From a virus: a stretch of DNA of 64,000 bases. The position numbers and the translations under genes were made by a program. Where the stretch lies: the IMG/VR virus record IMGVR_UViG_3300031841_004520, positions 1 through 64,000 of that record. One strand, 5' to 3'. Positions 1 through 46,621 of the stretch are shown in pieces. How positions within the stretch are numbered: position 1 is the first letter of the stretch; each line of letters begins with the position of its first letter. The notes beneath the pieces are model-generated. The model searched no databases, was not told the DNA's origin, and saw only the letters and a list, made by a program, of their open reading frames with translations.

Positions 1-346
1 CTGCACACAAGGCGTCGGCCATATCGTCAGACGTTTCTAGTGCATGAATAGCGTCGTGATTACGCTTGCGACTTTTGTAAGTATTGGTGAACAATACTTC
101 TTGACTAGCAGAGAAACAACGGAATTTTGTATCTGGCCCGTCCTTGATTCTGCGACTACCATCGGCCTGTTCTTCGGCTTGAGACTTGCACAGAAAAGCG
201 AAAGGACAGTCTACCCCCGACAAAATATCAAAGGAATAAACTTTGGCGGCAGACCGTCCTATCTTCTGGCCTAACCACCGCTTGAGCACAGTAGAGGCGA
301 GCTTGTATAGTTTCTTGAGTTTAGTATTGGCGGCTGAGAATTTCAT
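1..346 (-). CDS. Gp88-like phage protein (partial, runs off window)
   Basis: Missing from the ORF track because it is truncated. Translated by hand from ATG 346: MKFSAANTKLKKLYKL...VYSFDILSGVDCPFAFLCKSQA...DGPDTKFRCFSASQE. Has a GGAG RBS and an upstream promoter. Cys spacing resembles GP88-family proteins. Confidence 0.6.
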   Translation of the reverse strand, partial: MKFSAANTKLKKLYKLASTVLKRWLGQKIGRSAAKVYSFDILSGVDCPFAFLCKSQAEEQADGSRRIKDGPDTKFRCFSASQEVLFTNTYKSRKRNHDAIHALETSDDMADALCA

Positions 347-382
347 TGTGGTGTTCTCCGGTGTGATGTTGCTTGTCCCCTC

Positions 383-411
383 AGTATACTATAGTTATCG
401 TCCACTGTCAA
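383..411 (-). promoter_or_regulatory. sigma70-like early promoter TTGACA-N17-TATACT
   Basis: Minus strand reads TTGACA gtgga CGATA actatag TATACT, upstream of ATG 346. Confidence 0.8.
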
Positions 412-425
412 GCATAATCTTGAAT

Positions 426-548
426 CTTTTTTGGCTGACTATGCCACTAATGCCAGCCGGTAGGCTTAGGTGTGACAGAATAAGACTTTGGCACAGAACG
501 TGCGGGCACGACCGAACCTAAGTCATTGCTGAGCAACAACTTAGGCCG
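426..548. repeat. Composite intergenic element, copy 1
   Basis: Core ctatgccaNNNatgccagccggtaggcttaggt, TGGCAC...GC box (489-503), GCGGGC, and 25-bp dyad (519-543). Shared with the copies at ~1391 and ~2676. Confidence 0.9.
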
Positions 549-572
549 GTTCGCACACACCACGAGAGAGCG

Positions 573-956
573 TTACGCCACAATTCTACCGAATAGCGGC
601 TTGCGGCAATTCTTGACACGTTCGCAATAGAACTGTCGGATTTCACCGTCGTGCAATTCACACGTTACAATGTGATTTGTACGCTTGAACTCCGGATCGC
701 CTTTGCGATAGTTGGAAAGCCTATTCATTCTCTGAATAGTAGCGTCAGAAAACCTGAAAGGCTTGTCAAGAACCCTTGCAAGTACACGCTTTGGATCGCC
801 ATTCAATGGCTGCATGTACTCAAAATTAAAAACCTGTCCCGGTTTGGCTTCGCATAGATTAGCACGAAAACCACCGTAAACAGCGTAGATGCTGAAAGCT
901 ACCAATGCGATAGCAGCAGCAGCAACGATACCAACCGAAATCATCAAATTGTCCAT
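573..956 (-). CDS. Hypothetical protein with N-terminal membrane helix
   Basis: 127-aa ORF with hydrophobic N-terminus, GGAG RBS and its own consensus promoter. Confidence 0.75.
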   Translation of the reverse strand: MDNLMISVGIVAAAAIALVAFSIYAVYGGFRANLCEAKPGQVFNFEYMQPLNGDPKRVLARVLDKPFRFSDATIQRMNRLSNYRKGDPEFKRTNHIVTCELHDGEIRQFYCERVKNCRKPLFGRIVA

Positions 957-991
957 AATAAAAACTCCAAAGTGTGAAACTGAACCTAACC

Positions 992-1020
992 ATTATACCA
1001 TATGCTTGACACCGTGTCAA
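992..1020 (-). promoter_or_regulatory. Perfect sigma70 promoter TTGACA-N17-TATAAT
   Basis: Minus strand reads TTGACA cggtgtcaagcatatgg TATAAT. The -35 box is part of the palindrome TTGACAC-C-GTGTCAA (1006-1020). Confidence 0.85.
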
Positions 1021-1319
1021 GCCTTAATCGTCATTCCATCCTCAAAAGGTGTGATCCCATTCACATACCATTCCCAATTTTCTTGGCGTACATAAAAAGG
1101 ACTAAACTTATTGATTCTGTTTTTTGTTGTGTCTGTTTTGTGTCCACCATGTCTCAGCGTTACACTATTGTCAGGGTGGATCGTTACCACATCTGTACTG
1201 TACAGCCGAACAGCAATGCTGCCATTATGCAAAATTCTAGCGTATGTATTGTTTGCTACCTTGCGTTCCAGTTTGCAAGTTTTGCCGTGAACCAATTTTG
1301 TCAATTCTTTGTGTGTCAT
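1017..1319 (-). CDS. Conserved phage hypothetical protein (GG-x-x-T-x-TTK-x-RIN motif)
   Basis: 100-aa ORF with AGGAG RBS and upstream TTGACA-N16-TAGAAT. Confidence 0.75.
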   Translation of the reverse strand: MTHKELTKLVHGKTCKLERKVANNTYARILHNGSIAVRLYSTDVVTIHPDNSVTLRHGGHKTDTTKNRINKFSPFYVRQENWEWYVNGITPFEDGMTIKA

Positions 1320-1390
1320 AACTTTTCTCCTAAGTGTTATATCGACATTCTACCAGATAAACTTTAATTGTCAAGCGAAAAATTTGGCGT

Positions 1391-1512
1391 TTTTTCTCGC
1401 TGGCTATGCCACCTATGCCAGCCGGCAGGCTTAGGTAGGACAAATCAGCATTTGGCACAGCATATGCGGGCCCCGTCGCTGTAAGTCCTTATACAGCAAC
1501 GAGTTACGCCGA
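1391..1512. repeat. Composite intergenic element, copy 2
   Basis: tttttctcgctggctatgccacctatgccagccggcaggcttaggt, then TGGCACAGCATATGC (1453-1467), then 25-bp dyad (1482-1506). Confidence 0.9.
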
Positions 1513-1544
1513 TTTATAAAAAGTTAGGTGGAGCCGCTATCCCC

Positions 1545-1736
1545 TCAGTCAGATGTAGTAATATCGTAAGGGTAATTCCAGCTATAAGGGCTATTCCTAA
1601 CAGCTTCATTGTGTCTCTCTGTTGTCGACTCATCAAGTTCCTCCTCAAATAAAACGGTGTGTATACTCCACATTAGAGCAATACCAATACTATAACCAGT
1701 TACCACACTTAGAAAATCTAAATTAATAAAACTCAT
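1545..1736 (-). CDS. Small membrane hypothetical protein
   Basis: 63 aa with one hydrophobic helix. ATGA overlap with the upstream ORF and GAGGAG RBS. Confidence 0.65.
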   Translation of the reverse strand: MSFINLDFLSVVTGYSIGIALMWSIHTVLFEEELDESTTERHNEAVRNSPYSWNYPYDITTSD

Positions 1737-1960
1737 CCTGTATACTCCTCATAAGTGAAACTCTGAACCCCTCGACGATATTGTTCCTCTACAATACCTG
1801 AAATCGCTGCTAGATTTTCCTGTCTGTTCTCTGCTGTACTCAGATCAATCTTAGGTACTGCTACCATTATCGACAAATTGACCTGCTCTGTTCCAGTAAT
1901 TTCATCAACAATATTGTTGCAATCGTAGTATCGAAAATTTGGATCCATTGACTTATTCAT
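1733..1960 (-). CDS. Hypothetical protein
   Basis: 75 aa, GGAG RBS, tightly packed in the operon. Confidence 0.65.
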   Translation of the reverse strand: MNKSMDPNFRYYDCNNIVDEITGTEQVNLSIMVAVPKIDLSTAENRQENLAAISGIVEEQYRRGVQSFTYEEYTG

Positions 1961-1962
1961 GT

Positions 1963-2133
1963 TTATTCTCCGTTGATAAATCGTACTCGTAAAATGTTAG
2001 CGGCTACACTTACTCCGTCAAGTTCTTGTTGCTCCTGACATGCCAACAAATAGCATTGTAATCTAGGCGTGTCAAATTTGTCAAGTACTTTGTAAAGGTA
2101 TGCGTAAACAGATGTCGGTTTGTATTCGTACAT
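1963..2133 (-). CDS. Hypothetical protein
   Basis: Likely start is ATG 2133 (TGATG overlap with the upstream stop), giving MYEYKPTS... Confidence 0.55.
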   Translation of the reverse strand: MYEYKPTSVYAYLYKVLDKFDTPRLQCYLLACQEQQELDGVSVAANILRVRFINGE

Positions 2134-2369
2134 CACACCCCCCAATCTTCTGGATAGTCGAAAATATCATTCACGCAATCGTATTCGTTACCATATCCGT
2201 ACAGGTCAGCGTATTCCTGATCCATGTCTGGCTGCCCGTCATCATACGCATCTATCTCGTCTTGAAAGACATCACCATGAGCGACATATTCTTCTATCTG
2301 CTCAAGAACAGGATCAAGTCCGTCAACGTCGTCAAAATCTGAACGATAAATGTTTTCAGCAGGTGTCAT
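2133..2369 (-). CDS. Very acidic small protein
   Basis: D/E/Y-rich ~78 aa, GGAG RBS, promoter at 2405-2432. Confidence 0.7.
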   Translation of the reverse strand: MTPAENIYRSDFDDVDGLDPVLEQIEEYVAHGDVFQDEIDAYDDGQPDMDQEYADLYGYGNEYDCVNDIFDYPEDWGV

Positions 2370-2404
2370 AATCAATTCTCCAAGTGGTTAAGTGTTATAT
2401 TCCA

Positions 2405-2432
2405 AGTATACAGGTATTATCGACATTGTCAA
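2405..2432 (-). promoter_or_regulatory. sigma70-like promoter TTGACA-N16-TATACT with CGATA element
   Basis: Minus strand reads TTGACA atgt CGATA atacctg TATACT. Confidence 0.75.
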
Positions 2433-2441
2433 GAAAAATCT

Positions 2442-2600
2442 TTACTTTTTTTCTAAGATTGTATCCAAGTAAATTTCCTCCGGCGTGATAACGTATCCAT
2501 ACTCACAATTAGGGGTATAAACTCCCAAATATACTTTCCCGTTGTCATACCCTTCGAACCCTATCATCATCCCAAATATAGTGTAGATTGTCAACATCAT
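2442..2600 (-). CDS. 52-aa hypothetical protein (below ORF-track cutoff)
   Basis: MMLTIYTIFGMMIGFEGYDNGKVYLGVYTPNCEYGYVITPEEIYLDTILEKK. GGAG RBS, with CGATA-N7-TATAAG upstream. Confidence 0.65.
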   Translation of the reverse strand: MMLTIYTIFGMMIGFEGYDNGKVYLGVYTPNCEYGYVITPEEIYLDTILEKK

Positions 2601-2675
2601 TTTTCTCCGTGGGTTATTCTTTCCTTATACATATATTATCGGCTTGTCCTGGAGCTATCTTTAATTAAATACATC

Positions 2676-2792
2676 TTTTTTCTCGCTGGCTATGCCATCA
2701 ATGCCAGCCGGTAGGCTTAGGTGATACATATGTACACCTACGTTCGGCGGCGGGCTCCGTAGAGCTAAGTCCTTTCCTCACAAGGGTTTACG
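2676..2792. repeat. Composite intergenic element, copy 3
   Basis: Same core as copies 1 and 2. The sigma54-type box is replaced by the hairpin taggtg-a-tacatatgta-caccta. The right arm of the 25-bp dyad (2766-2790) supplies the stop codon of ORF 2788-3216. Confidence 0.9.
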
Positions 2793-3216
2793 TCAACAAT
2801 ACATATCGTTTCTTATTACCTCCCATTTTTTCCAGCTTTGAGATTTTATGTCGAAAAAATAACGCTGCTTTCCCTTGTATATGTCTGCTGCTTAGATGGT
2901 GATTCATTTCTTCGAATGATATTTTATCTTTACCCTCTACCATCTGATTCCATATAATATCTTTTTGCTCTGATGTAACATACTTAGGATTCATAGGAGT
3001 AGCAGTCATGCTGCTCATCTTCTGTTCAATTTGTTTCTCTAGAAACTCTGGCGATAGGTCACTCATAATATCAGAGTACTGTTCTTTTATATCCTTTACT
3101 CTCTGCTCATATCGTTGGTACTGCTCTATTATCAGTCGATTCTGTATTAGTACTTCTGCCATATCTCTGCACATATCATCTAATGCTGTCAATCTTGTTT
3201 CAAAATCCATGATCAT
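2788..3216 (-). CDS. Hypothetical coiled-coil protein, possible C-terminal winged helix
   Basis: 142 aa, heptad-like N-half, GGAG RBS. Confidence 0.7.
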   Translation of the reverse strand: MIMDFETRLTALDDMCRDMAEVLIQNRLIIEQYQRYEQRVKDIKEQYSDIMSDLSPEFLEKQIEQKMSSMTATPMNPKYVTSEQKDIIWNQMVEGKDKISFEEMNHHLSSRHIQGKAALFFRHKISKLEKMGGNKKRYVLLT

Positions 3217-3371
3217 TCTCCAGATGGTGATGTTTCTGTTTCCTCTAATAGCTTACGATTGAACTTGTGAACAGTACCATCCTGCTCAACACCCAACCAT
3301 ATCTTAGTGCATTCATCCCAGGCAGCTGATAGGATAGGGTACTGCCTCATAAGTGTTTCAGTGTCAGTCAT
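3213..3371 (-). CDS. Small hypothetical protein
   Basis: ATG 3371 with AGGAG RBS is more plausible than the ORF-track start at 3431. Confidence 0.55.
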   Translation of the reverse strand: MTDTETLMRQYPILSAAWDECTKIWLGVEQDGTVHKFNRKLLEETETSPSGE

Positions 3372-3714
3372 TATAACAATAGTCTCCTGTGTTAAAGTTA
3401 CGGATACGCTGTAGTCTGTCGGCAACTTCATAGAAGTCTAACCAGCCATCAACGTCTACAATACCTAATGCTGCATTCCATTCGGTATCATAGATCAGTT
3501 CACTTGTGATCTCTGGATCAGTACCGTGAGGATACTTTAACAACGCAAGTTCAAAATACCCTGCATGGCCACCATAAGTCCCATCATGACAAGCGACACT
3601 AGCCCCAAGTCCGTTGCTGAAATAGTAGCGTTTAACATATCGACCTTCCTTATTGTGAACGTCTGCTAGGAATCGTGTCTCATTTAGTTTCAGTGGGTTT
3701 ACTTTAGTTTTCAT
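3364..3714 (-). CDS. Conserved phage hypothetical protein (F-x-NG-x-GASV...YGG...FELA)
   Basis: 116 aa, GAGGAGG RBS, motif common in phage early proteins. Confidence 0.75.
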   Translation of the reverse strand: MKTKVNPLKLNETRFLADVHNKEGRYVKRYYFSNGLGASVACHDGTYGGHAGYFELALLKYPHGTDPEITSELIYDTEWNAALGIVDVDGWLDFYEVADRLQRIRNFNTGDYCYND

Positions 3715-3839
3715 TCTACATCCTCCTCAAATATAGGATCACCACACTCATCGACTGCTATACCGTCATCATTCATAAAAACATCGCCATTGGCTATACC
3801 CTCAACGATGATTTCTATTTTATCTTGTTCGCTAAACAT
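3711..3839 (-). CDS. 42-aa acidic microprotein
   Basis: MFSEQDKIEIIVEGIANGDVFMNDDGIAVDECGDPIFEEDVE. AGGAG RBS, ATGA overlap with the next gene. Confidence 0.6.
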   Translation of the reverse strand: MFSEQDKIEIIVEGIANGDVFMNDDGIAVDECGDPIFEEDVE

Positions 3840-3847
3840 TTTTACTC

Positions 3848-3940
3848 CTAACAAATTGGTGTGTAGCTATAGAATACTGACACAACAATAACACAACATA
3901 CAATAACAATCAACAACAATTCTTGATCTGACTCTTTCAT
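3848..3940 (-). CDS. 30-aa single-pass membrane microprotein
   Basis: MKESDQELLLIVIVCCVIVVSVFYSYTPIC. Strong AAGGAGG RBS. Confidence 0.55.
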   Translation of the reverse strand: MKESDQELLLIVIVCCVIVVSVFYSYTPIC

Positions 3941-3949
3941 AATGCCTCC

Positions 3950-4390
3950 TTATCGGCTTGCCTTCAGTATACCTTCCACTTTACGCTTGTCAACCATTTT
4001 CTCCAGACGGTTACGGATAATGCAACCCCTCACATTGGCTTGACGCCATGCCTTTACGATTGCTGTGAGCCTGACTATCTCTGATTGTCTGACATTAGCA
4101 AGTGTCTCTAAAAAGTCTGTTCTAGCTTGCATGATGTCGGCATAGTCACCGAATCCATCAACACTAGGACGGATTGCCAATTCGACTACGGTATTTTGTT
4201 TGCGATTATTACAGACACCGCACAGGGCTTGCAGATTGTCCAGACTTGTTTCACCACCCTTCGACTCTGGCACAATGTGGTCAGCTTGCAGGGCGTCACG
4301 GTCACCGATACCACAGGCACGGCAACGGCCATTGTCACGGTTGATCACTTGCAATCGCAGACTTGCAGGAATTGGTTTTTTGCGTCTCAT
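3950..4390 (-). CDS. HNH endonuclease
   Basis: RD-x3-CRAC...ADHIVPESKGG...DNLQALCGVCNNRK, a classic Zn-binding HNH. Confidence 0.9.
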   Translation of the reverse strand: MRRKKPIPASLRLQVINRDNGRCRACGIGDRDALQADHIVPESKGGETSLDNLQALCGVCNNRKQNTVVELAIRPSVDGFGDYADIMQARTDFLETLANVRQSEIVRLTAIVKAWRQANVRGCIIRNRLEKMVDKRKVEGILKASR

Positions 4391-4424
4391 AATGTGGTGT
4401 CCTTAGCGGGTGGTGAATAATCCG

Positions 4425-4453
4425 AGTCTAATATATATATCGACAGATTGCAA
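4425..4453 (-). promoter_or_regulatory. sigma70-like promoter TTGCAA-N17-TAGACT with CGATA element
   Basis: Minus strand reads TTGCAA tctgt CGATA tatatat TAGACT, upstream of the HNH gene. Confidence 0.65.
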
Positions 4454-4461
4454 GGGCAGCA

Positions 4462-4641
4462 TTAGCCTGCCCCGTAAAAATCCAGACTAGCCTGAAAATG
4501 TACAGACTCCGAATCCTCATAATCGACACGATCTTCAATCACTTCACAATGTTCTAAGCAATCGGGACAAATTTGTGCATCCGAATGAACGTATGATCCA
4601 CAGCAATCGGTAACATAATAGATTTCAAAATTCTTACTCAT
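4462..4641 (-). CDS. 59-aa Zn-ribbon-like protein (CC...CxxC-x3-C)
   Basis: MSKNFEIYYVTDCCGSYVHSDAQICPDCLEHCEVIEDRVDYEDSESVHFQASLDFYGAG. AAGGAG RBS. Below the ORF-track cutoff. Confidence 0.7.
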   Translation of the reverse strand: MSKNFEIYYVTDCCGSYVHSDAQICPDCLEHCEVIEDRVDYEDSESVHFQASLDFYGAG

Positions 4642-4688
4642 AATTAAAACTCCTTAAAGGTAAAACTTGTTTTGATACCTAATACATA

Positions 4689-4705
4689 TGCAATCGGCGT
4701 GCCAA
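4689..4705 (-). promoter_or_regulatory. sigma54 (RpoN) -24/-12 promoter
   Basis: Minus strand TTGGCACGCCGATTGCA matches consensus YTGGCACG-N4-TTGCW with exact GG-N10-GC spacing, ~50 nt upstream of ATG 4641. Confidence 0.75.
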
Positions 4706-4751
4706 AACTAAAAATATTTTTATACTTGTTTTATAGGTATATTGTGATTCT

Positions 4752-4840
4752 CATTTTAAGACATGATTTGCATTTTGCAAATAGTGTAGCATTTTGCATT
4801 GCATTTTGCAACACCCATGATATTGTGTATCATTTTGAGA
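4752..4840. repeat. Short iterated CATTTTGCA/CATTTTRAGA repeats
   Basis: cattttgca at 4771, 4790 and 4802; cattttaaga at 4752; cattttgaga at 4831. All lie in the longest non-coding gap. Confidence 0.7.
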
Positions 4841-4908
4841 TATTTCTGCCCCATAGGTTTAGATAGTACACTTATGTACAGTAGTGGGGTTTTTTTGTTT
4901 TGATATCG

Positions 4909-4931
4909 TTATTGAGAATCAGTCTCAATAA
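4909..4931. promoter_or_regulatory. Perfect 9-5-9 palindrome (Fur-box-like operator)
   Basis: TTATTGAGA-ATCAG-TCTCAATAA. Confidence 0.5.
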
Positions 4932-4988
4932 GCGGGGGTGGTATAGACACAATCCGACCCCCCATATTAAATTAACCGTTTTATATAA

Positions 4989-5189
4989 TTAGTTAATAGT
5001 ATCCTTCTTGGGTCTTCCTTTCTTTTTAATCACTTGCATCTTTCGTCTCTGTTGTCTTATCATATCCGACGTTATCTTCTCTCCACTAATTTCTCCCATT
5101 CTTATAGCTATTTGTTTGTCACTACATGTCCCGCAATTCTCCCTAATGAATTCCTTCTCTGCATTACTCCATCTCTTATAGTTAGCCAT
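4989..5189 (-). CDS. Small basic HTH-like DNA-binding protein
   Basis: W-S-x-x-E-x-x-FI...SDKQIA...IRQQRRKM, C-terminal KKKGRPKK AT-hook-like. Minus-strand GGTGTAT at 5241-5247 upstream. Confidence 0.7.
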   Translation of the reverse strand: MANYKRWSNAEKEFIRENCGTCSDKQIAIRMGEISGEKITSDMIRQQRRKMQVIKKKGRPKKDTIN

Positions 5190-5267
5190 TTTAGTAGATC
5201 CTTATTGACAAATGTGTATATCTTAATACTATAATACTAGATACACCGTTTTTTGCAAGGAGCAAAG

Positions 5268-5417
5268 ATGAGTAAACCAATTGACTCTACATTAAATGTA
5301 AAAGCTTGTGCCAGTTTGGATGTTTCAAAGGACCTGGAAAAATCCCAAGGAAAGTGCATTAATGAGCTACTAGATGAGCAAAAAGAAGACGACGAAGAAG
5401 AACACACTACCGAATAA
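5268..5417 (+). CDS. 49-aa hypothetical protein
   Basis: AAGGAG RBS. MSKPIDSTLNVKACASLDVSKDLEKSQGKCINELLDEQKEDDEEEHTTE. Overlaps the sigma gene start. Confidence 0.5.
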   Translation: MSKPIDSTLNVKACASLDVSKDLEKSQGKCINELLDEQKEDDEEEHTTE

Positions 5418-6018
5418 TGTAAGCGAAGCAGAATTTTTAGAAGTATTAGATAATATAAGTAGACGACTAGGTAATAAATTTAAATTTGGATATCATACTT
5501 TTGAAGACATGAAACAACAAGCCGCTATATTTGCTATAGAAGGCTTAAAACGCTACGACTCTAGCAGACCATTAGAAAACTTTTTATGGACGCATGTAAG
5601 AAATAGATTATTTAATTATAAAAGAGATCATTATCAACGACCAGATATTCCCTGCAACACCTGTCCTTTTTTCGACAAGCATTGTAAAAAAAGCCAGAGT
5701 ATGTGTACAGAGTTTAGCAATAGAAATGATTGCGAGCTTTATGACACATGGTATATCAGGAATAATGCTAAGAAAAACATAATGAAACCTGTGGATATAG
5801 AAAACACACCTAGCCACAGTAAATGCTTGGATGTAGAAGATATAGTTGACAATGCTGAGGTTCTTAATATAATAGATATTAAAATGCCTACTCAATATCG
5901 TGATCTGTATTTAAAATTACGTCATGGAGATAAAATAACCAAAAACGACCAGAAGAAAGTTATTAGTATAATCCAAACTATCCTAACACAACACTACGAA
6001 AATGAACAAGATACCTAA
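5374..6018 (+). CDS. Phage sigma70-family sigma factor (putative late sigma) with Cys-rich insertion
   Basis: Region-2-like EDMKQQAAIFAIEGLKRYDSSRPLENFLWTHVRNRLFNYKRD followed by CNTC...C...C...C. Heads the morphogenesis block. Confidence 0.7.
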   Translation: MSKKKTTKKNTLPNNVSEAEFLEVLDNISRRLGNKFKFGYHTFEDMKQQAAIFAIEGLKRYDSSRPLENFLWTHVRNRLFNYKRDHYQRPDIPCNTCPFFDKHCKKSQSMCTEFSNRNDCELYDTWYIRNNAKKNIMKPVDIENTPSHSKCLDVEDIVDNAEVLNIIDIKMPTQYRDLYLKLRHGDKITKNDQKKVISIIQTILTQHYENEQDT

Positions 6019-6808
6019 GAAGCGTGGACAGCTATCTCTAGATGAAGAAGAGTATATAAGAGATAATTTTAATAAATTAGATATTAAACAAATCGCCACC
6101 CACTTAAACCGTACTCCTGCACCAATCAAAAGATATATATCTGAATCTAAATTGGAGTATATGAATGATCCTGAAGGCTATGACACCCTTAAAAATAAAC
6201 TACACAGTAAAAGCTTTTGGAATGAAATAACTAGACAATTTGATGCTGATAGTGGAGAATTAGAATATTTTGAAAATACATGGATTAATTTAGTAAAACA
6301 ATTTCGTGAGGACGTACTTCCTGCAGAAGAATTACAAATTAAACAGTTTATCACTATTGACATTTTAATCAATCGTTCAATGAAAGAACGCAAAAGACAT
6401 ATAGCAGATACAGAGAAGCTACAGAAGCAAGTAGACTTTGAATACAGTTTAGCAGAAGAAGATAGAGACACGGCGAAACTCACTAATTTAGAAACTCAAT
6501 TAAGTTTTGCAAGGAACAGCATTAGCTCTTATACGAATGAGTATACTAAACTTTTAAATGAACAGCAGAAGATTAGCAAAGATTTAAAAGCGACACGTGA
6601 ACAGCGGATTAAACGTATAGAGGATGGTAAATCATCATGGGTGGGGCTTATCAGAATGTTGGAAGACGAAGAGATAAGAGAAAAAGAAGGTAGGCAGATG
6701 GAAATATTAAATATGGCTACAGAAAAAAGTAGAGAAAAATTAGCAGAATACCATACTTATGCAAATGATATTGTAGACAAACCCTTCTTAACACCAGATG
6801 ATGTATAG
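6002..6808 (+). CDS. HTH plus coiled-coil protein, candidate terminase small subunit
   Basis: N-terminal HTH (LDIKQIATHLNRTPAPIKRYI), long coiled coil, located upstream of TerL. The TerS role is inference. Confidence 0.45.
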   Translation: MNKIPKKRGQLSLDEEEYIRDNFNKLDIKQIATHLNRTPAPIKRYISESKLEYMNDPEGYDTLKNKLHSKSFWNEITRQFDADSGELEYFENTWINLVKQFREDVLPAEELQIKQFITIDILINRSMKERKRHIADTEKLQKQVDFEYSLAEEDRDTAKLTNLETQLSFARNSISSYTNEYTKLLNEQQKISKDLKATREQRIKRIEDGKSSWVGLIRMLEDEEIREKEGRQMEILNMATEKSREKLAEYHTYANDIVDKPFLTPDDV

Positions 6809-7067
6809 AAATTATAAAGATCCACAATATAAACAATGGAGAAAACAGGTCAAAAAATTAGACAATCATACATGTCAGTGGCCAGGGTGTAATATGAAAA
6901 AACAATTACAAGTACATCATATAAAAAGGTGGAGTGATTTTCCAGGGTTACGTTTTCATCCCAATAACGGTATAACATTATGCAGAAAACATCATTCGTT
7001 TATTAAGGATAACGAAGATGCGTATGCAGAAACTTTTTTTAAAATAGTTAGTAATAGGAGGAGATGA
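6798..7067 (+). CDS. HNH endonuclease (packaging-associated)
   Basis: CQWPGC...LQVHHIKRW...NGITLCRKHH, close to TerL. Confidence 0.85.
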   Translation: MMYRNYKDPQYKQWRKQVKKLDNHTCQWPGCNMKKQLQVHHIKRWSDFPGLRFHPNNGITLCRKHHSFIKDNEDAYAETFFKIVSNRRR

Positions 7068-17721: not shown

Positions 17722-20700
17722 ATGGCTAGGAATAATTTAATACAATTTAGAAAAGGTACATTAAGTCAATTTAATAGTACTAACCCTACTCTTGCCAGTG
17801 GAGAGCCTGGATTTGCTATTGATGCGAATGTGTTAAAGGTAGGAGATGGTATCACTCCCTGGAGTGGTCTTCTGGGATTTAGTGTTGGTAGTGGAATAAG
17901 TAATATCAATGGATTAACCTCCTCATCTTTAGTTATAGACGGTGGTCGTAACATACAGGTTACTACTAGCGGTACTGAGATTATCAATATCTCCTATACA
18001 GGTTTGGATCACATATCAGTATCTGCCATATCTAATGAAACCAATAGTAATAATACTTTTATTCAGGATTTACTTTTTGACCAGTATGGCCATGTCACAG
18101 GCGTTGCTAGTGTTGCTGTTACAGGCATTGGAGACAGTGTTCCTAGCAATGTTTTGGTGTCAGGAGACAACATTAGTTTATTAACTAATGATGCTGACTA
18201 TGAGTCGATACCTCAGTATGCTTTGACGGCCTCTCCAGGTAATGCTAATTATACCTTTAATGGTCCAGGCTTATCTGGTGGTGGTAATGATCCAACATTA
18301 TATTTATATAGAGGCAGAACATATAAGTTTGTTAATAATATGGGTGCTCATCCATTTCAATTTCAGACTACTGCAGGAGTAGGTGGCACTGCTTATACAG
18401 ATGGTATTACTGGTAGTCCTGTTAGTAATGGTACATTGACTTGGGAAATCCAACATGATGCCCCTAATATTTTATATTATCAGTGTACATCACATTCTAG
18501 TATGCAGGGTGTTGTTTATATCTTAGACAAAGACTCTCATCCCACGATATCTACTATATCAAGTGTTGATAATAGCAATAATACTTTTGTTCAAGACTTA
18601 TCATTTGATCAGTACGGTCACGTTACTGGTGTTGTTAGTATTGGGGTTACTGGCATTGCAACTACAGAGGATCTTAGTTCTGTTTCTGGTTATCTACAAG
18701 GACAGATAAATGCCTTGCCTTCCGATACTAATACTTTTGTTAGTGGAATTGTATACAGCACAGGTTCAAGAGATTTAGTATTAACTAGAAATGATGGTGT
18801 TTTATTAACAGGTGATCTTAGTGTTGTTTTACAAAGTGGAGATAATATAAGTCTACTAAATAATAATCTTGGTTACATTACAGGGTTTACAGAAACTATT
18901 AGTTCTGGGGATCCTGTTAGTTTCTTAGTTAATGATGTACCTTACGCAATCAGTGGAACTCATATAGCCATAAGCAATGCTGCTTCTAATGTTAATAATA
19001 CTGATGATGATTTTGTTCAAGATCTTTTGTTTGATGAATTTGGTCATATCACAGGAGTTGTCTCTGCAAAAGCTTCTAGCGGAGTAGTTAACGCAGCATT
19101 AAACACACAAGTACAGGCTGGAGAACATATACTTTTAATCTATGATTCTGGTACAGGTACTGATCCTACAGGAACACTAACAATTAATGTTACTGGTATT
19201 ATAGATGGTGGAGCAACTGTTAATCATTTACCTGTGTTTAGTAATACCGTCACCCCTCTTGTTAATAGTATTATTCATCAAAGTGGAAACACTCTTGGTA
19301 TTAATGATATTGCTAGTGGTGGTAATATTACTTTACATGCTCACGGTATAAATAATACCGGTAGCTGGATAGTAAATGAAAATGCTCAGGGTAATTCTAT
19401 ATATAATACAGTATTCGAAACTAGAGAAAGCGGTACTAGGCTTGGTGCTATGTATAGCTATGGTACTGCCTATGGCGGTGGGTCATTAGCTAGCGTTGGA
19501 TCTGGAGGAACTGCCTTTGCTAGTATTACAGGACCTGTTGCTATTGGACCTGCTGATGCAACTAAAGATTTACTTTTTGGTGCTGGCAATGCCCAATACG
19601 CAAAGATGACAAGCACAGAATTTAGGATTAATCATGATGGACTAAATCGTGATTTTAGAGTTGAAGGAGTTACAGACCAAGATCTGATTGTTGCTGACGC
19701 TAGCACAGGTCGTGTCGGTATAGGAACAGGAGTTCCAGAAGTAAGGTTGCATGTTTCTGCAACAAATGGTGAAGGCACAATTTTATCTCAAACACATGAT
19801 AACAATAGCTGGGCAGGATTACTTGTTCGTAATGAGCACAATCAAAATGTTGCTAGTTTTCAGTATGGTAATAGTGGCGTTTCGCACACTCCATCACTAC
19901 AAAATACTCTTATAGTTGGGAGTAGACAGTCTGGAGTGCCGGTAAAATTCTATCAAGGAGCAGAACTTGATGGTGCGTTTAGACATAATAACGAAAGAAT
20001 AATTTTTGATACTAGTGGAAATACCACATTAACAGCAGCGTCTGGTCAGAACGTTGTGGTTAGTGGAAGCAATGATTTTATAGTTTATGGAATTGGTACT
20101 CATCCTTTAATCTACACAGATCCTGATAGTGGACCTGGTAGAGTTGGTATTGGGAGAATACCAGATAATTATGTTTTAGACGTTTCAGGTTCTCTTAGGG
20201 TTAGCCCTATTAGCACAGCAACTAGAATATTCACCGTTAACAATACTTCTGGAACTACAGCATTTGAAGTAGAGCCCAATTCGGTTTATACTAGATTGCC
20301 TCTTGGTGTTAATATTACCGGTTCTGTAAATACAGCCTATGGTATTGAAGTATATGACACAGGCATTATGTCAACCGGAACATTCTTTTTTGCTGCTGGT
20401 AATGGTATTGATGCTGTAGGGGCTTATGTCAAAAATATTAACCCCTCAGGAGACTCTTTTTATGCTTTAGGTATTGATGGTGGTGCTGTCAACTGGGTTT
20501 TGATGAATGATGCTAGTGGTCGTGGAACAGAAGACACTTTTGTTTTAATGAAAGGTAATGTAGCTAGTGATGATGTAAAGTTGGCTGTTACTGCTAGTGG
20601 CAATGTTGGTATAGGTACAGATAGTCCTAGTACTAAATTAGAAGTAGCTAATAATGGTAATACCACGATTAGAGCAAACAATACATCAGACAACATTATT

Positions 20701-23700
20701 AATATTTTGAATGTTGACTCTGATAAGGGTTACATAGGAACAATAACAGATCATGATCTGAGGATAGGTACAAACAGTAATGGTAGAATAATTATTTCCA
20801 ACACTGGAAATGTTGGAATTGGTGTTGATCCAGATGTATTTCTAAGTGGTATGCCTTCTCATCATCCTTCTTTTGTCCTTGGTGATGGCAATGGTCATAC
20901 TAGTCAAACTATCTATTCAGCTTCCACCAGTGCTGGAGTCATATACTTTGCAGATGGAGTTGACGAAACTTCACGTTCAAGAGGCTGGATATCGTATGAT
21001 CATAATTCAGGATTAGATCGTATGCGGTTTGCTACATCTAATGTTGCAAGAATGTTTATAGATTCTGTTGGTAGTGTTGGTATTGGTACAGATTCTCCAG
21101 TAACAAAACTAGATGTTAGTGGTACAATAACTGCTAGTAGCGGCAATTCAACTCAGTGGAATACTGCTTACGGATGGGGAGACCATTCACAAGCTGCGTA
21201 TATCACAGGACATCCTGTTATTAGTGCTGCTAACACGAGTTCAAATGCTGGTAATGTTTTTATACAGAATTTAACCCTAGATGCTAATGGACACATTCTT
21301 GCTATAGATGTTGCCCTACCTACTGGTGTTGGTGGCGGTGGTAGTGGTATATCTAGTTTATTAGAAGATCAAAATCCTCAGCTTGGTGGTAATTTAGATT
21401 TAAATAATAAAAATATAGATGGTGCAGGTAGTATCGATATTGATGGACCTATTACTGCTGAAGAACTTACCATAAGCAGTTCCGATCCTTATATATATCA
21501 ACGGAGTACAGACTCAACAGAGATAGTTAAGACATATCATTATGACACGGGAAGTCAGCTTGGAGGACTTCTTTCATATGGAAAATCCTCTAGTGCATTT
21601 ACAAGTTTCAATACTCTGCTGGGATTAGGTGCTGGCAGTTTTCATTTATTCTCTAGTTATGGACATTTAGGTATTAATACCTACGGAGTTGCTAAAGATA
21701 TTGTATTTGGAACAGACAATACAGAAAGAGCTAGAATAACTTCTGTAGGTGATATTGGTATTGGGACGAATTCTCCTGTTTCCAAACTTGATATTAGAGA
21801 TGGAGATATCCTAGTAGGAACTAAATTGGTGGTTGGTAGTGGAGTATATAGTCAAACTTCACCTGGAGCTTATTTCGGATTAAAACACACTAGTCTCACA
21901 GGTCCATCCGAATATATGATCATGAGCGCTGGTACTCACACTTATCTTAGCGCTAAAGAAGATAGCGATGTTATTATTAGAGGTGGTGGGAATAAAGTTG
22001 ATCATCAGGTTGTTGTATCTGAAAGTGGAGTTACTATCGGTAAGTATAGACCTGCAGCCAGTAGTGTTGTAGCTGAACATGATGTTGAGCTTGTGTATGA
22101 CGATGGTGGTTGTGTCAGAGTTGCTGATCGTGGTGGTAGTGGAGTTATGATTGGAGATTGCGCATACTCTCTTGGTGATACATATGCTGGCATGAAGCAT
22201 ACTCATCATAGTGGTAGTCAAGACTATATGATGATTAGTCAAGGATATTCTACATTGGTTTCTAGTAAATCTGGTTATAGTACATATCTACGAGCTGGCG
22301 GTAATGCTACAACTTATCAAACTATTATTGGGTCTGATGCCTGGGGAATTGGTCCTAATGCTAACAGATTAAGAGTTAATAGTCAGTCTGTTCTTGTTAA
22401 CAACGGTACGGGTAATTATGACTTTAAGGTTTATGGCCAAAATAATGCAACGCCATTAATTCATGCTGATGCTGCATTGAGCAGAGTTGGAATTGGTACA
22501 GCTACTCCTGCTTCTACGCTGGACGTTGATGGAACGATAACTGCTACGACCCTAGTTAAATCTGGGGGAACATCTTCACAATTCTTAAAGGCTGATGGGA
22601 GTGTTGATACTAGTACATACTTAACTGGAAGTAGTACTATTGGTAGTCTTACAGATGTCACACTAACCACACCCATAAACAATGATCAAGTGCTTTCGTA
22701 TTCATCTGTTGGTGGTTTTACAAATACTGATCTTGGTCTTAACTTAATGAAAAGAGGAAGCATTCCATTTGGTGGATATAGTGATTCTCAAATGGGTCAT
22801 TATTTCTTTTTTGATGGAAGTTCCGAAGCTGTTATAAATACAGATGGTGACGATATAAACTTTAGGGTTGAGGGTAGTGGTGGTACTAATTTATTATTTA
22901 CCGATGCTGGAACAGATAGAGTTGGTATTGGAAATAACTCGCCTACACATAAATTAGATGTTGCGGGTGAAACTAGGATTATGCCTAGATCTTCTCCAAG
23001 TGGCCACACTCTTTATCTTGGTAGACATCCATATCAAGCTAATATTAAAGCCGAAGGCTCTAATCAAGAAAACCAATGGATGATTATAGATAGTGCTGGC
23101 TCAGGCATGAGAACTGCCTTAAATTACTTTGTCGACGATGATGTATTATTAGCTTATGGCGGTGGTAATGTCGGCGTTGGTACTACTAGTCCTAACAATC
23201 AATTAGATATTTACGCAACTGGCGTACACGCTGGAGCAACTATTCGTGGCACTAATGCTCCCGGCTTAAAACTTTGGGATATGTCATATGGCACTTATAA
23301 TAACGGCGGATCAAAGATTGTAGAACAAGCTAGCAGTTTGCATAGCGGGGTTTTAATTATTGACGCTGATACCGATAATGTTGGTCATGGATCTTATATG
23401 TCGCTTCGCGTTGATGGCACTGAACGTGTTCAAATTACAGAACATGGAAATCTTGGTATTGGCGTTGATCCAGATTTATTTATACGCGACCTTCCATCCC
23501 ATCACCCTTCTCTTGTCCTTGGTGACGGTAATGGTCATACTAGTCAAACCTTTTACTCATCTAGCAGTAGTTCTGCTGTTATATATTTTGCAGATGGAAC
23601 AGGTATTAGTCATTACCCTGGATATATACAATATACTCATTCTGAAGACCATATGCAGTTTGCCACAAACAATCTGGTCCGTATGCGTATAGATTCTGCT

Positions 23701-25449
23701 GGTAATGTTGGTATTGGTACACCTTCTCCAGCACACAAATTAGATGTGGTTTATCCTGATAGTGGATGTGTGAGATTTGCTGATCCGTCTGGCAGTGGAA
23801 TTATGATAGGTGATTGCGCTTTATCATCTAATGCTACTTATGCGGGTATGCAGCACACCAAAATGGTTGGTAGTTACATGATGGTGAGCGATGGTGACGA
23901 CACCTATATTAGTGCCAGAGATACTCAAAGTGTGTTTATTAGAGGTGGTGGAAATGCTGCTGAAGCAGAAATTGCTATTCATGATGTCGGTGCTGGTGGA
24001 GTGGGTATTGTGTTCAACAGCCAGAGTGCTGATAGAGATATTAGAATAGCAGGCACTGGTGACGCGAATCTCTTTAGGGTTGATGCTGATGAGGATAGAA
24101 TTGGTATCGGCACGGCTACACCAGCTTATAAGTTACATGTACAGGGTACTGCATATATTTACAATGGAATTATAAGTCCAACAACAGCATTTAGAACTGC
24201 TGATATTCCATTATCTGGTCCTCCTATTTATGATGGGTTTATTGCTTATCAAAATAGCGATTGTTGGGGTTTAGGTAATAGTGCTAACGACGGTTTTGTG
24301 TTTGAAAAAACAGATGGTAATCAAGGCGGTGCTGACGGCGGCATATTTTTTAATATAAGAGGTAGCGGTGGCACTACTGAAACAGCGATGAGTATAAATG
24401 GACAAAAAGAAATCTTTATTGGACAAACAGGAACCTATGTACAACAAGGATATTCGTTAAATGTTAAAGGTGGAGCAACTCTAGATTCTCTTAATATCAA
24501 TAGTCAGTATACACTTCCTACGGCAGATGGTACAGCTGGACAGAGTTTGGTAACAGATGGTGCTGGCAATATTGTATTTAGTAGTATTAGTGGAGGGGGA
24601 GCAGGTGGTTCTGGTAATTTAGTAAGAGGATCTGAGGTAGTAACTGCTACTACGGGACTCTTTGATGTTTCAGGAGGTTATAGCGTTGGTACACTTGATG
24701 TTTATCAAAATGGCGTTAAATTATTTGAAGGAGCTGCTTATGACTATACTGCTACAAACGGCACATCCTTTACGTTAGCCAACTCAGCCAATAGTGGAGA
24801 TTTAATAGAATACATAGGGCTTAATACTTCTACAAATGCGGTGGGTAATACCTCTTTGGGTACTGTAACTGTTACAAGTAATCAAACCGTATTCAACACA
24901 AGCGACACATTTACTAGCTCTAACTTGGCTGTATTTCTAAATGGTGTTAAGTTAGTAGACGGTACTGACTATAACGTAACCAGTAGTTCTCAGTTTACAT
25001 TAACATCTACCGCAGTCTCTGGAGACATTGTTGAATATATAGCTTATGGAGCTACAGTAGCCAGCTCTAATCTGCAAAAAACTGGTGATACAATGACGGG
25101 CAACTTAACTGTCAATGCAGATCTTATAGTTAAAGGTTACAAAGAAACACATACAGATAATGGCAATACTGGTACTTCACAAACTATAGACATTAGTAGT
25201 AGTACTTTACAAACATATACATTAACAGGTAATTGTACGTTTACAATGCCTACCGCAGAGGCTGGTAGAAGTTTTACAATGTTTCTTAAGACAGGAGCTG
25301 GCAGCTTCAGTGCTACATTTACTGGTGTTAAATTCCCTTTAAATATTGCCCCTATAATTACTACTGATGCTAATAGAATGGATTTAATTACATTTTACTC
25401 TGATGGGACAAATTGGTACGGCAATACACAGCAGGAGTACCATATATGA
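17722..25449 (+). CDS. Giant (2575 aa) modular fibre/adhesin protein
   Basis: Mtd_N-like start, cupredoxin-like domain, repeated FxQDLxFDxxGHVTGV units, many G-x-VGIG-T-x-x-P repeats, two V(Y/F)xNGVKL modules, C-terminal SDGTNWYG domain. Confidence 0.85.
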   Translation: MARNNLIQFRKGTLSQFNSTNPTLASGEPGFAIDANVLKVGDGITPWSGLLGFSVGSGISNINGLTSSSLVIDGGRNIQVTTSGTEIINISYTGLDHISVSAISNETNSNNTFIQDLLFDQYGHVTGVASVAVTGIGDSVPSNVLVSGDNISLLTNDADYESIPQYALTASPGNANYTFNGPGLSGGGNDPTLYLYRGRTYKFVNNMGAHPFQFQTTAGVGGTAYTDGITGSPVSNGTLTWEIQHDAPNILYYQCTSHSSMQGVVYILDKDSHPTISTISSVDNSNNTFVQDLSFDQYGHVTGVVSIGVTGIATTEDLSSVSGYLQGQINALPSDTNTFVSGIVYSTGSRDLVLTRNDGVLLTGDLSVVLQSGDNISLLNNNLGYITGFTETISSGDPVSFLVNDVPYAISGTHIAISNAASNVNNTDDDFVQDLLFDEFGHITGVVSAKASSGVVNAALNTQVQAGEHILLIYDSGTGTDPTGTLTINVTGIIDGGATVNHLPVFSNTVTPLVNSIIHQSGNTLGINDIASGGNITLHAHGINNTGSWIVNENAQGNSIYNTVFETRESGTRLGAMYSYGTAYGGGSLASVGSGGTAFASITGPVAIGPADATKDLLFGAGNAQYAKMTSTEFRINHDGLNRDFRVEGVTDQDLIVADASTGRVGIGTGVPEVRLHVSATNGEGTILSQTHDNNSWAGLLVRNEHNQNVASFQYGNSGVSHTPSLQNTLIVGSRQSGVPVKFYQGAELDGAFRHNNERIIFDTSGNTTLTAASGQNVVVSGSNDFIVYGIGTHPLIYTDPDSGPGRVGIGRIPDNYVLDVSGSLRVSPISTATRIFTVNNTSGTTAFEVEPNSVYTRLPLGVNITGSVNTAYGIEVYDTGIMSTGTFFFAAGNGIDAVGAYVKNINPSGDSFYALGIDGGAVNWVLMNDASGRGTEDTFVLMKGNVASDDVKLAVTASGNVGIGTDSPSTKLEVANNGNTTIRANNTSDNIINILNVDSDKGYIGTITDHDLRIGTNSNGRIIISNTGNVGIGVDPDVFLSGMPSHHPSFVLGDGNGHTSQTIYSASTSAGVIYFADGVDETSRSRGWISYDHNSGLDRMRFATSNVARMFIDSVGSVGIGTDSPVTKLDVSGTITASSGNSTQWNTAYGWGDHSQAAYITGHPVISAANTSSNAGNVFIQNLTLDANGHILAIDVALPTGVGGGGSGISSLLEDQNPQLGGNLDLNNKNIDGAGSIDIDGPITAEELTISSSDPYIYQRSTDSTEIVKTYHYDTGSQLGGLLSYGKSSSAFTSFNTLLGLGAGSFHLFSSYGHLGINTYGVAKDIVFGTDNTERARITSVGDIGIGTNSPVSKLDIRDGDILVGTKLVVGSGVYSQTSPGAYFGLKHTSLTGPSEYMIMSAGTHTYLSAKEDSDVIIRGGGNKVDHQVVVSESGVTIGKYRPAASSVVAEHDVELVYDDGGCVRVADRGGSGVMIGDCAYSLGDTYAGMKHTHHSGSQDYMMISQGYSTLVSSKSGYSTYLRAGGNATTYQTIIGSDAWGIGPNANRLRVNSQSVLVNNGTGNYDFKVYGQNNATPLIHADAALSRVGIGTATPASTLDVDGTITATTLVKSGGTSSQFLKADGSVDTSTYLTGSSTIGSLTDVTLTTPINNDQVLSYSSVGGFTNTDLGLNLMKRGSIPFGGYSDSQMGHYFFFDGSSEAVINTDGDDINFRVEGSGGTNLLFTDAGTDRVGIGNNSPTHKLDVAGETRIMPRSSPSGHTLYLGRHPYQANIKAEGSNQENQWMIIDSAGSGMRTALNYFVDDDVLLAYGGGNVGVGTTSPNNQLDIYATGVHAGATIRGTNAPGLKLWDMSYGTYNNGGSKIVEQASSLHSGVLIIDADTDNVGHGSYMSLRVDGTERVQITEHGNLGIGVDPDLFIRDLPSHHPSLVLGDGNGHTSQTFYSSSSSSAVIYFADGTGISHYPGYIQYTHSEDHMQFATNNLVRMRIDSAGNVGIGTPSPAHKLDVVYPDSGCVRFADPSGSGIMIGDCALSSNATYAGMQHTKMVGSYMMVSDGDDTYISARDTQSVFIRGGGNAAEAEIAIHDVGAGGVGIVFNSQSADRDIRIAGTGDANLFRVDADEDRIGIGTATPAYKLHVQGTAYIYNGIISPTTAFRTADIPLSGPPIYDGFIAYQNSDCWGLGNSANDGFVFEKTDGNQGGADGGIFFNIRGSGGTTETAMSINGQKEIFIGQTGTYVQQGYSLNVKGGATLDSLNINSQYTLPTADGTAGQSLVTDGAGNIVFSSISGGGAGGSGNLVRGSEVVTATTGLFDVSGGYSVGTLDVYQNGVKLFEGAAYDYTATNGTSFTLANSANSGDLIEYIGLNTSTNAVGNTSLGTVTVTSNQTVFNTSDTFTSSNLAVFLNGVKLVDGTDYNVTSSSQFTLTSTAVSGDIVEYIAYGATVASSNLQKTGDTMTGNLTVNADLIVKGYKETHTDNGNTGTSQTIDISSSTLQTYTLTGNCTFTMPTAEAGRSFTMFLKTGAGSFSATFTGVKFPLNIAPIITTDANRMDLITFYSDGTNWYGNTQQEYHI

Positions 25450-45703: not shown

Positions 45704-46621
45704 ATGTTTAGGATTTACTACAATACAAAAGTAAGAAATTTTAATAAAGTATTACACAAGCCTAAGGTGTTACATAAGGCTTACAACTATATTTATTGTA
45801 GAGATATTGATCTAAATACTATACAGCCGGGACAAACTTTTAATATAGGTAATTTAGAGCAAACTATTTTAGAAAAAGATAGTGATGGTTTCTTTGTAGC
45901 TCCTGGATTACATATGCCAAATCCTTTATCAAAAGCAGACTTTGTGATTAACTTATTTGGAAATCAACACAATATGTCTTTTAATGCTTTTTCTTCTTAT
46001 AACTCTATGCTCGTTGGTTCTTTGATTTATCCTAGTTTTTATTCACATATAAACGTTGGAGATGAAGCCAGAGCAATAGACATACATGACAATATAGTAT
46101 ATATACAAAATTTAGAAATAACTAGTTTAGAAAATGTAGAAAGTGTTTATTTAAATGACACCATGACTACTGTAGCAAAATTTAATAAAAATTTAGAGTT
46201 GTGCGATTGGCTCAACAAAGCCTCCAACTTATCAATATATTCTTTAACTACTGTCTTAAAAAATTTAGATATGAATGTTTATTTTAGGTGTTATGGTGGA
46301 TCACCTAAGTCCAATTTTGTAGATAATCCAATGCCGCAGTATAAACTAGAAATTACTGACTTGGATACAGAAGAGACTGTGACAAAATATATTTATCAGT
46401 TTCATAGTGAGACTATTAGTGCAAAACATAGATATAAACTTATGGTTAAAGACGAGTTAAATAACATTCCTGTATTGGTTAATGATAGTAGTACTGATGG
46501 CAATATATATGTTGATTTTTCTAATATGGATAATTTTACTATGATGTCTCAAAAAACTACTACATCTAGAAAAACACTTGCAGAAATAGCAGAACCTTTG
46601 TTCCAAAGAAGAGTAAAATAA
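45704..46621 (+). CDS. Hypothetical protein (tail tip region)
   Basis: 305-aa AT-rich ORF in the operon. Confidence 0.65.
   Translation: MFRIYYNTKVRNFNKVLHKPKVLHKAYNYIYCRDIDLNTIQPGQTFNIGNLEQTILEKDSDGFFVAPGLHMPNPLSKADFVINLFGNQHNMSFNAFSSYNSMLVGSLIYPSFYSHINVGDEARAIDIHDNIVYIQNLEITSLENVESVYLNDTMTTVAKFNKNLELCDWLNKASNLSIYSLTTVLKNLDMNVYFRCYGGSPKSNFVDNPMPQYKLEITDLDTEETVTKYIYQFHSETISAKHRYKLMVKDELNNIPVLVNDSSTDGNIYVDFSNMDNFTMMSQKTTTSRKTLAEIAEPLFQRRVK

Follow-up and report, generated by a model that had tools for sequence, protein, structure and literature searches.

Sigma54 promoters, with the consensus TGGCAC-N5-TTGCW, and the LuxO/NtrC-type enhancers that serve them are textbook elements of bacterial gene control. 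Phages are thought to begin infection with sigma70 promoters or with polymerases of their own. Here we describe sigma54-type sites in a large, uncultured, marine phage, found in the first 64 kb (64,000 nucleotides, referred to below as the window) of the IMG/VR record IMGVR_UViG_3300031841_004520 (123,592 bp, linear, 36% G+C, with completeness estimated at 89%). The minus-strand site at 4704..4689 is probably a genuine enhancer-dependent sigma54 promoter that heads a leftward early-type arm, and the two plus-strand sites at 488-503 and 1452-1467 are decayed and most likely weak or inactive.

Several described systems share features with this locus. At glnAp1/glnAp2 of enteric bacteria, NtrC binding sites act on a sigma54 promoter and at the same time overlap one of sigma70 type. 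Dependence on sigma54 has been documented for very few phages, with YuA as the one case confirmed in the text searched. The sigma54 promoters of YuA are said to serve the region for particle formation and lysis. The sites described here share with YuA the dependence of some phage promoters on host sigma54, but differ in their early-type location, in their activator palindromes and in forming, in related phages, arrays that are mostly antisense. The host sigma54 dependence of some promoters of Pseudomonas phage YuA is stated in a preprint (bioRxiv 10.1101/2023.10.13.562163, citing Ceyssens et al. 2008). Known phages that read the host quorum state use a phage-encoded receptor, as phage VP882 reportedly does with a VqmA homologue. 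In Escherichia coli, intragenic and antisense sigma54 binding sites have been described (PLoS Genet 2015, PMC4591121); these resemble the second, mostly antisense class of phage sites discussed below (type B) in not heading a gene, whereas the phage sites cluster, lie between genes and stay close to the consensus. Finally, the Vibrio qrr promoters, which use LuxO and sigma54, carry TTGCA-W3-TGCAA palindromes ∼90-130 nt upstream of a TTGGCAC-N5-TTGCA core, and the published LuxO site consensus is TTGCAW3TGCAA, located at -89 to -120 (PMC11443567). No description of sigma54 arrays or of LuxO-type sites in a phage was found in the open-access literature. Three features appear to be new: a sigma54 promoter of the enhancer type that leads a phage early-type arm, its conservation over a large uncultured lineage, and arrays of mostly antisense consensus sites.

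The reverse complement of positions 4689-4705 is TTGGCACGCCGATTGCA, a -24/-12 core of the form TTGGCAC-GCCGA-TTGCA (a sense, or type A, site) with its GG at 4703/4702 and its GC at 4691/4690. The doublets are 10 nt apart and the match to the consensus is without mismatch; when both strands of the 123,592-bp record were scanned, the perfect form TGGCAC-N5-TTGC occurred at this position only. A preliminary description of the window had listed the three motifs at 4689-4705 (minus), 488-503 (plus) and 1452-1467 (plus), the plus-strand pair with GG-N10-GC spacing; the coordinates proved exact, as did this spacing in all three, and the predicted transcription starts are therefore 4678 (minus), 515 (plus) and 1479 (plus). 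It had also placed the minus-strand core ahead of the first early gene. The -12 element is followed by AT-rich DNA, by a ribosome site AAGGAG at 4656..4651 and by a gene at 4641..4462, the start codon of which lies 49 nt past the -12 C. The gene encodes a Cys-rich protein of 59 aa with no family match, and is followed on the same strand, ahead of the next sigma70 promoter, by an HNH endonuclease gene (4390..3950), one of two such genes in the window (the other lies at 6798-7067 on the plus strand). The type A region was also considered as a sigma70 promoter, with TTGGCA as -35 and TATATA as -10 element, and this was rejected on the spacer of 12-13 nt.

The surroundings of the core correspond to those of an activator-dependent promoter. 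Two perfect palindromes TTGCA-TTT-TGCAA (TTGCATTTTGCAA) lie at 4768-4780 and 4799-4811, centred at -96 and -127 from the predicted start, and an imperfect one with two mismatches, TAGCA-TTT-TGCAT (TAGCATTTTGCAT, 4787-4799), is centred at -115 and aligns with TAGCA/TGCTA-type sites of related phages. All three fall within the ∼80-150 nt at which activator sites are expected. Measured against the reported LuxO site, the two perfect palindromes fit the consensus; -96 lies within the range given for qrr promoters and -127 just beyond it. No further perfect copy of TTGCA-W3-TGCAA is present in the 123.6-kb record. Between palindromes and core, an A/T-rich spacer (4706..4767) holds an A5-TA-T5 tract at 4711-4722, likely a bend or an IHF-type element.

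Codon-usage gene calls for this phage give small minus-strand genes from 573 to 5189, a plus-strand arm from 5253 to 57184, with a sigma70-like gene, the terminase and giant open reading frames (ORFs), and a minus-strand arm from 57174 to 123455. Strong sigma70 promoters (TTGACA-N16/17-TATAAT) serve the small leftward genes; on the minus strand, seven of them score 10-12 of 12 consensus positions. The motif region is thus early-type and adjoins a divergent control region at 4642-5270. The early genes of related phages are likewise on the minus strand with sigma70 promoters.

Conservation of the motif was followed in related phages, namely the best 80 loci (71-98% identity, 1.18 Mb) of at least 597 TerL-related viral stretches found by a terminase search. 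These loci are kin and some are duplicates, so counts take unique contexts only. In the 80 loci, TGGCA-N6-TTGC occurs 113 times, compared with 6-31 times at each of the other spacers between 0 and 13. The unique sites number 94, and their variable positions agree with the extended sigma54 consensus: -27 is T in 78, the letter behind TGGCA is C or T in 88 and the one after it A or G in 88, and TTGC is followed by T or A in 83. No single-mismatch variant exceeds 25 unique sites, and two of the variants that seem enriched are a conserved coding sequence. In five complete relatives (160-230 kb) used for whole-genome mapping, the sites are clustered: nine of ten lie within 57.8-62.3 kb (4.5 kb) of a 200-kb genome and eight of nine within 39.0-42.8 kb (3.8 kb) of a 224-kb genome. 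The other three genomes carry four, two and one, and a reversed-pattern control gave none. Spacing-specific enrichment, consensus flanks and clustering show, at the level of sequence, that the motif is under selection in the early region of this phage lineage.

When 112 unique sites of the form TGGCAY-N5-(T/G)TGC were classified, 24 were of type A: a ribosome site follows, the start codon comes 28-92 nt past the -12 C and, in 19 of the 24, TATATA stands directly after the -12 element. A further 40, of type B, are followed by a double-hairpin element of 85 nt, and the remaining 48 comprise sites with other hairpins, face-to-face pairs and background matches within genes. An alignment of nine homologous regions of type A shows a common order of palindromes, A-run/T-run tract, -24/-12 core and AT-rich stretch. 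The palindromes, two or three of the form T(T/A)GCA-W3-TGC(A/T)A, precede TGGCAC by ∼75-120 nt; TGGCA and TTGC do not vary although the mean column identity is 61%, and the AAAA and T-run columns of the spacer are kept. Palindrome placement is specific across the relatives: of 34 unique palindromes, 24 are found 50-150 nt upstream of a sigma54 site, whereas the mirror position has none, and four control patterns gave 0/24, 0/1, 0/4 and 0/7. A de novo count of palindromes upstream of the sites ranked TTGCA-N3 first (12 sites) and GTAGC-N5 second (six sites). In six divergent pairs of promoters, four of the pairs at exactly 164 nt, both promoters share the palindromes that separate them, and AAAAATATTTTT of the window spacer also occurs beside the minus-strand site of such pairs. 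In the closest relatives with upstream DNA (L003, L004, L011 and L002), the type A site is the only one present; three of these loci extend less than 1.5 kb beyond it.

Bacterial genomes provide a control for this layout. The pattern of palindrome, 58-88 nt and core has at least 120 matches in one-per-species genomes from many phyla, against ∼4 expected (an estimate that assumes uniform base composition). In two Vibrio genomes among the matches listed, the Rfam Qrr model begins exactly 12 nt past the -12 C, which validates both the layout and the start rule. Rfam gave no family downstream of the non-Vibrio matches. When the phage region is aligned with two Vibrio loci, its proximal site falls within ∼10 nt of their qrr sites; the phage site differs from the qrr promoters in that it heads protein-coding genes, with a ribosome site and the 59-codon gene, and no Qrr small RNA or other Rfam family was matched in the 64-kb window. 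Since the layout is found in many non-Vibrio phyla, LuxO cannot be named as the activator.

The two plus-strand sites present a different picture. Both are type B-like, with plus-strand letters TTGGCACAGAACGTGC (488-503; TTGGCAC-AGAAC-GTGC, with G at -15) and TTGGCACAGCATATGC (1452-1467; TTGGCAC-AGCAT-ATGC, with A at -15). The preliminary description had them inside repeat copies 1 and 2 and pointing against the direction of the genes, and this is correct. They lie in homologous copies of a repeat family, D4 (479-507 and 1443-1471), the first being antisense to the gene at 573-956 and the second to the minus-strand ORFs 1514-1648 and 1545-1736 downstream, with the minus-strand gene 1017-1319 (a PHROG match at E 1.6e-10) upstream. 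Of the two -15 variants, GTGC is common in relatives (21 unique, mostly sense promoters), whereas ATGC is at background (seven). No palindromes are present upstream of either site, where repeat D1, which adjoins D4, is found instead.

D1 is a 62-nt repeat with a hairpin GCTGGC..GCCAGC around the direct repeat TATGCCA-NN-TATGCCA, located just upstream of an A-run and the sigma70 -35 element of the next minus-strand gene. Its copies are at 416..477, where the hairpin is GCTGAC..GCCAGC and the repeat sits between the sigma70 promoter at 411..383 (minus) and the site at 488; at 1381..1442, a homologous copy; and at 2667..2728, where the adjoining sigma54-like motif has been lost. D1 was found only in this genome (three copies) and in none of 96 loci from other records (relatives and six contigs of metagenome-assembled genomes (MAGs), some duplicates). 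The tandem TGGCAT of the repeat core, earlier likened to a -24 box, does not hold up as one: it reads on the minus strand within the D1 hairpin, and no GC stands where a -12 element would be.

In the relatives, type B sites have on one side the double-hairpin that closes a sigma70-driven cassette at its 3′ end, and on the other the sigma70 promoter of the following cassette; most of the sites face the element. The double-hairpin is a quasi-palindrome of ∼85 nt, with TAAG/CTTA-rich arms around a G+C-rich spacer (for example L018:1355-1439 and L037:2691-2775). Some 150 copies occur in L001-L080 (299 matches with both strands counted), at nearly every early-cassette junction; a sigma54 site adjoins 41 of them. 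No Rfam family was matched by the element in five relatives scanned. Other lineages show the same layout with other sequences, such as CTGCCATTTTGGCAG twice in L033 and hairpins of C/G runs in L047. RNA of the plus strand is the more stable in 66 of 99 unique copies and that of the minus strand in 31. As the consensus structure that RNAalifold found for 23 copies was weak (-0.1 to -2.0 kcal/mol), and none was found for 99, base pairs were counted on hand-drawn models. On these, the outer stem has 176 G.U and 60 A.C pairs, the inner stem 41 and 37. These figures hint that the plus strand of the element may be transcribed in relatives.

Remnants of the double-hairpin are present in the window at 509-553, 1474-1501 and 2766-2790, with only the first hairpin surviving. 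The hairpin at 509..553 directly follows the stop of gene 573-956 and is related, by alignment, to the first half of the relatives' element (TAAGT..ACTTA). It folds at -26.6 kcal/mol on the minus strand against -18.5 kcal/mol on the plus strand, and the hairpin of repeat copy 2 (GTAAGT.., 1474..1501) at -18.2 against -10.8 kcal/mol. Neither strand has a T run at these repeat hairpins, where a scan for intrinsic terminators found no terminator-like site. Because of the -15 mismatch, the missing palindromes, the loss of the motif from the third copy, the better folding of the sense strand, the single remaining hairpin and the presence of the type A site alone in the available upstream DNA of the closest relatives, 488-503 and 1452-1467 are read as relics, most likely weak or inactive, of a second, family-wide class of consensus sites.

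The factors acting on the promoter would be supplied by the host, since neither a sigma54 gene nor one for a canonical activator was found in the phage or in complete relatives. Searches with Pfam profiles detected no Sigma54_DBD in the record or in five complete relatives, and no Sigma54_CBD in the record or in four of them. The preliminary description had proposed a search of the rest of the genome for a bacterial enhancer-binding protein, and this came back empty for the record and for the complete relatives covered, four or five of the five in each profile search: the sole Sigma54_activat signal, considered as a phage activator, belongs to a RuvB homologue (RuvB_N E 1e-46). This homologue is full-length (G000:C1:118665-119558, minus strand; RuvB_C E 1e-18) and is found also in at least three of the five complete relatives (G001, G002 and G005), with a weaker match of similar length in G003.

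We propose that host RNA polymerase with sigma54 would rest on the 4704..4689 core as a closed complex, and that a host activator of the NtrC/LuxO family, bound to the palindromes, would loop across the bent A/T tract and open the promoter with ATP. Transcription from ∼4678 would then yield an mRNA that encodes the Cys-rich protein of 59 aa together with the HNH endonuclease, and the transcript may extend into the sigma70-driven cassettes. This would make that share of early expression subject to the host's signalling state, for example to cell density if the activator is LuxO-like. A broader and more tentative proposal, which seems less likely than not, is that a large uncultured family of aquatic phages (120-230 kb) ties its early programme to host LuxO/NtrC-type signalling, and hence to cell density or nutrient state. 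Sense sigma54 promoters with activator palindromes would switch on chosen early genes, and arrays of up to nine antisense consensus sites would brake the sigma70 cassettes according to host state, through antisense RNA that runs through the conserved double-hairpin or through polymerase kept at the sites; the phage of the window would have kept the sense promoter along with antisense relics.

Alternatively, the plus-strand sites of the window and the type B sites of relatives may be functional, either as antisense promoters or as docking places for sigma54 polymerase, which could form an insulator or roadblock at the next sigma70 promoter or a sink for host sigma54. The preliminary description had foreseen such antisense, roadblock or decoy roles. 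For the relatives there is some indirect support: 94 unique sites are perfect, against at most 25 for any single-mismatch variant; 88 of 96 perfect sites are intergenic; and 56 have their next downstream gene on the opposite strand, 29 on their own. The double-hairpin follows 40 of the 112 sites, site copy number ranges from 1 to 10 per complete genome, and both the greater stability of plus-strand RNA and the excess of G.U pairs in the outer stem fit plus-strand transcription. In the divergent pairs, four sites of type B stand opposite one of type A, with the shared palindromes in between, and type B sites abut an A/T-rich stretch just upstream of a divergent sigma70 -35 element. Orientation may be reversed at the same junction, and a few sites have the opposite direction, which fits binding rather than directed transcription. 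However, a recognisable activator site accompanies only 16 of 110 sites, so that most type B sites are without one; the site stands beside just 41 of ∼150 elements, and the element thus does not need it; and no precedent for a sigma54 roadblock was found in the open-access literature searched. For the two sites in the window, the signs of decay set out above count further against activity, and we regard this explanation as rather improbable overall. The sigma54 reading of the preliminary description is upheld in part: the motifs are selected promoter sequences, and the sense site with its activator palindromes fits a link to host sigma54, whereas the antisense pair in the window is probably weak or vestigial.

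It is quite unlikely that the motif and palindromes are instead read by proteins of the phage itself, such as the sigma70-like product of 5374-6018 and the small helix-turn-helix (HTH)-like products of 4989-5189 and 6002-6808. These genes do adjoin the control region and are conserved, the flanks of the palindrome half-sites differ between phages and the GTAGC form is not enriched in bacteria; the match of the sigma-like protein (Sigma70_r2, E 3.7e-4) is below the cut-off. The -35/-10 spacing of the sigma70 family is incompatible with two blocks 5 nt apart, and the likeness of the core to sigma54 promoters reaches into the flanking positions. In addition, palindrome-plus-core is the Vibrio qrr layout and is widespread in bacteria, and the sites are confined to a few kb, unlike the promoters of a phage sigma factor, which would be spread over middle or late genes. 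That all three matches in the window are functionless look-alikes produced by chance is very unlikely. Such a view can appeal to the shuffled sequences, considered below, and to the six one-mismatch sites that retain GG and GC in the genome, four of which are coding; it is opposed by the conservation of site position and sequence in relatives, by the placement of the sole two perfect palindromes at enhancer distance, and by the spacing-specific enrichment throughout the family.

Several observations weigh against the interpretation of 4704..4689 as an enhancer-dependent sigma54 promoter. The core is expected 0.11 times in the window and is seen once, and at least one copy arises in 11 of 100 shuffles, so that core frequency alone is not significant in the window; the comparison with shuffled background that had been suggested earlier is thus decided by the counts from the family. 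(Matches with up to two mismatches number 57 in the window, against 28.3 ± 4.7 expected, and are mostly in coding sequence.) Most downstream genes possess strong sigma70 promoters of their own, and the sigma54 promoter would therefore be dispensable for most of the arm. The proximal palindrome overlaps, at its -35 element, a sigma70-like match TTGCAA-N16-TAAAAT (4780..4753); this recalls glnAp1/glnAp2, with the difference that the match in the window is predicted and weak (9/12). The palindromes could also be operators of a phage regulator, as small HTH-like genes adjoin. Among these, a 66-aa protein (4989-5189, minus) and a 268-aa protein (6002-6808, plus) flank the control region, have weak matches to HTH domains and to a PHROG annotated as 'D5-like transcriptional regulator', and are candidate binders of the palindromes. 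The GTAGC-N5-GCTAC form with a core gives 58 matches in bacterial genomes of assorted taxa, against ∼67 expected (an estimate), and so offers no lead to a host. The labels of related MAG contigs are inconsistent (Rickettsiales, Alphaproteobacteria, Flavobacteriales, SAR202 and Silvanigrellaceae), probably through mis-binning. Gene calls in relatives were made with a home-made codon-usage caller. Finally, metatranscriptome contigs that match the region are unstranded, show no start and may stem from DNA carry-over.

If the proposal is correct, a host signal-transduction protein gates early phage expression across a lineage of at least 597 related stretches and, with a LuxO-like activator, the host quorum state would be read directly through host DNA-binding sites. 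The signature could also be used for host prediction, as the host must possess rpoN and an activator of this specificity. A further, weak hint about the host comes from a Shine-Dalgarno core ahead of 29 of 81 long genes, which would fit a host that uses such sites.

The metatranscriptome matches come from two marine runs of one study, which contain 58% and 43% of sampled words of window positions 1-6000. Near-identical contigs cover much of 1-5000, and one of them bridges the promoter (4286-4924); lacking strand and start, and possibly derived from DNA, they are neutral with regard to the promoter. One contig matches from the -12 element upstream and differs downstream, with a loose end at 4688, which suggests a mosaic or recombination joint between strains at the promoter.

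The wider genome has no close cultured relative. A DNA search of window positions 1-6000 against cultured phages gave no match, and the large terminase has only 22-29% identity to those of cultured phages (of Bacillus, Clostridium and Microcystis). No tRNAs were found in the window or in the whole record. The 214-aa sigma70-like protein (5374-6018, plus), with its sub-threshold match, is conserved in relatives, where it leads the terminase arm, and is possibly a phage sigma factor for late genes. The giant ORFs of the plus-strand arm are at 17722-25449, 36888-43802, 46621-51456 and 51456-56732 (2575, 2304, 1611 and 1758 aa).

Hairpins occur at further positions around the sites. On the plus strand of the window, a weak hairpin CCCCA..TGGGG followed by a run of seven Ts (4848..4896) has a fold z-score of only -0.78; at the equivalent position in L033, L061, L006 and L043, a plus-strand sigma54 site is followed by CCCCACC..GGGGGG-T6. 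In some relatives, two sites stand face to face and overlap at their -12 ends (L018:3215-3275, L018:4627-4687, L046:813-872, L047:3303-3352 and L036:205-270). Such pairs form a long palindrome with a T run, directly followed by a third plus-strand site; judged by its letters, this arrangement would be a plus-strand terminator of hairpin and T run that is built from promoter motifs.

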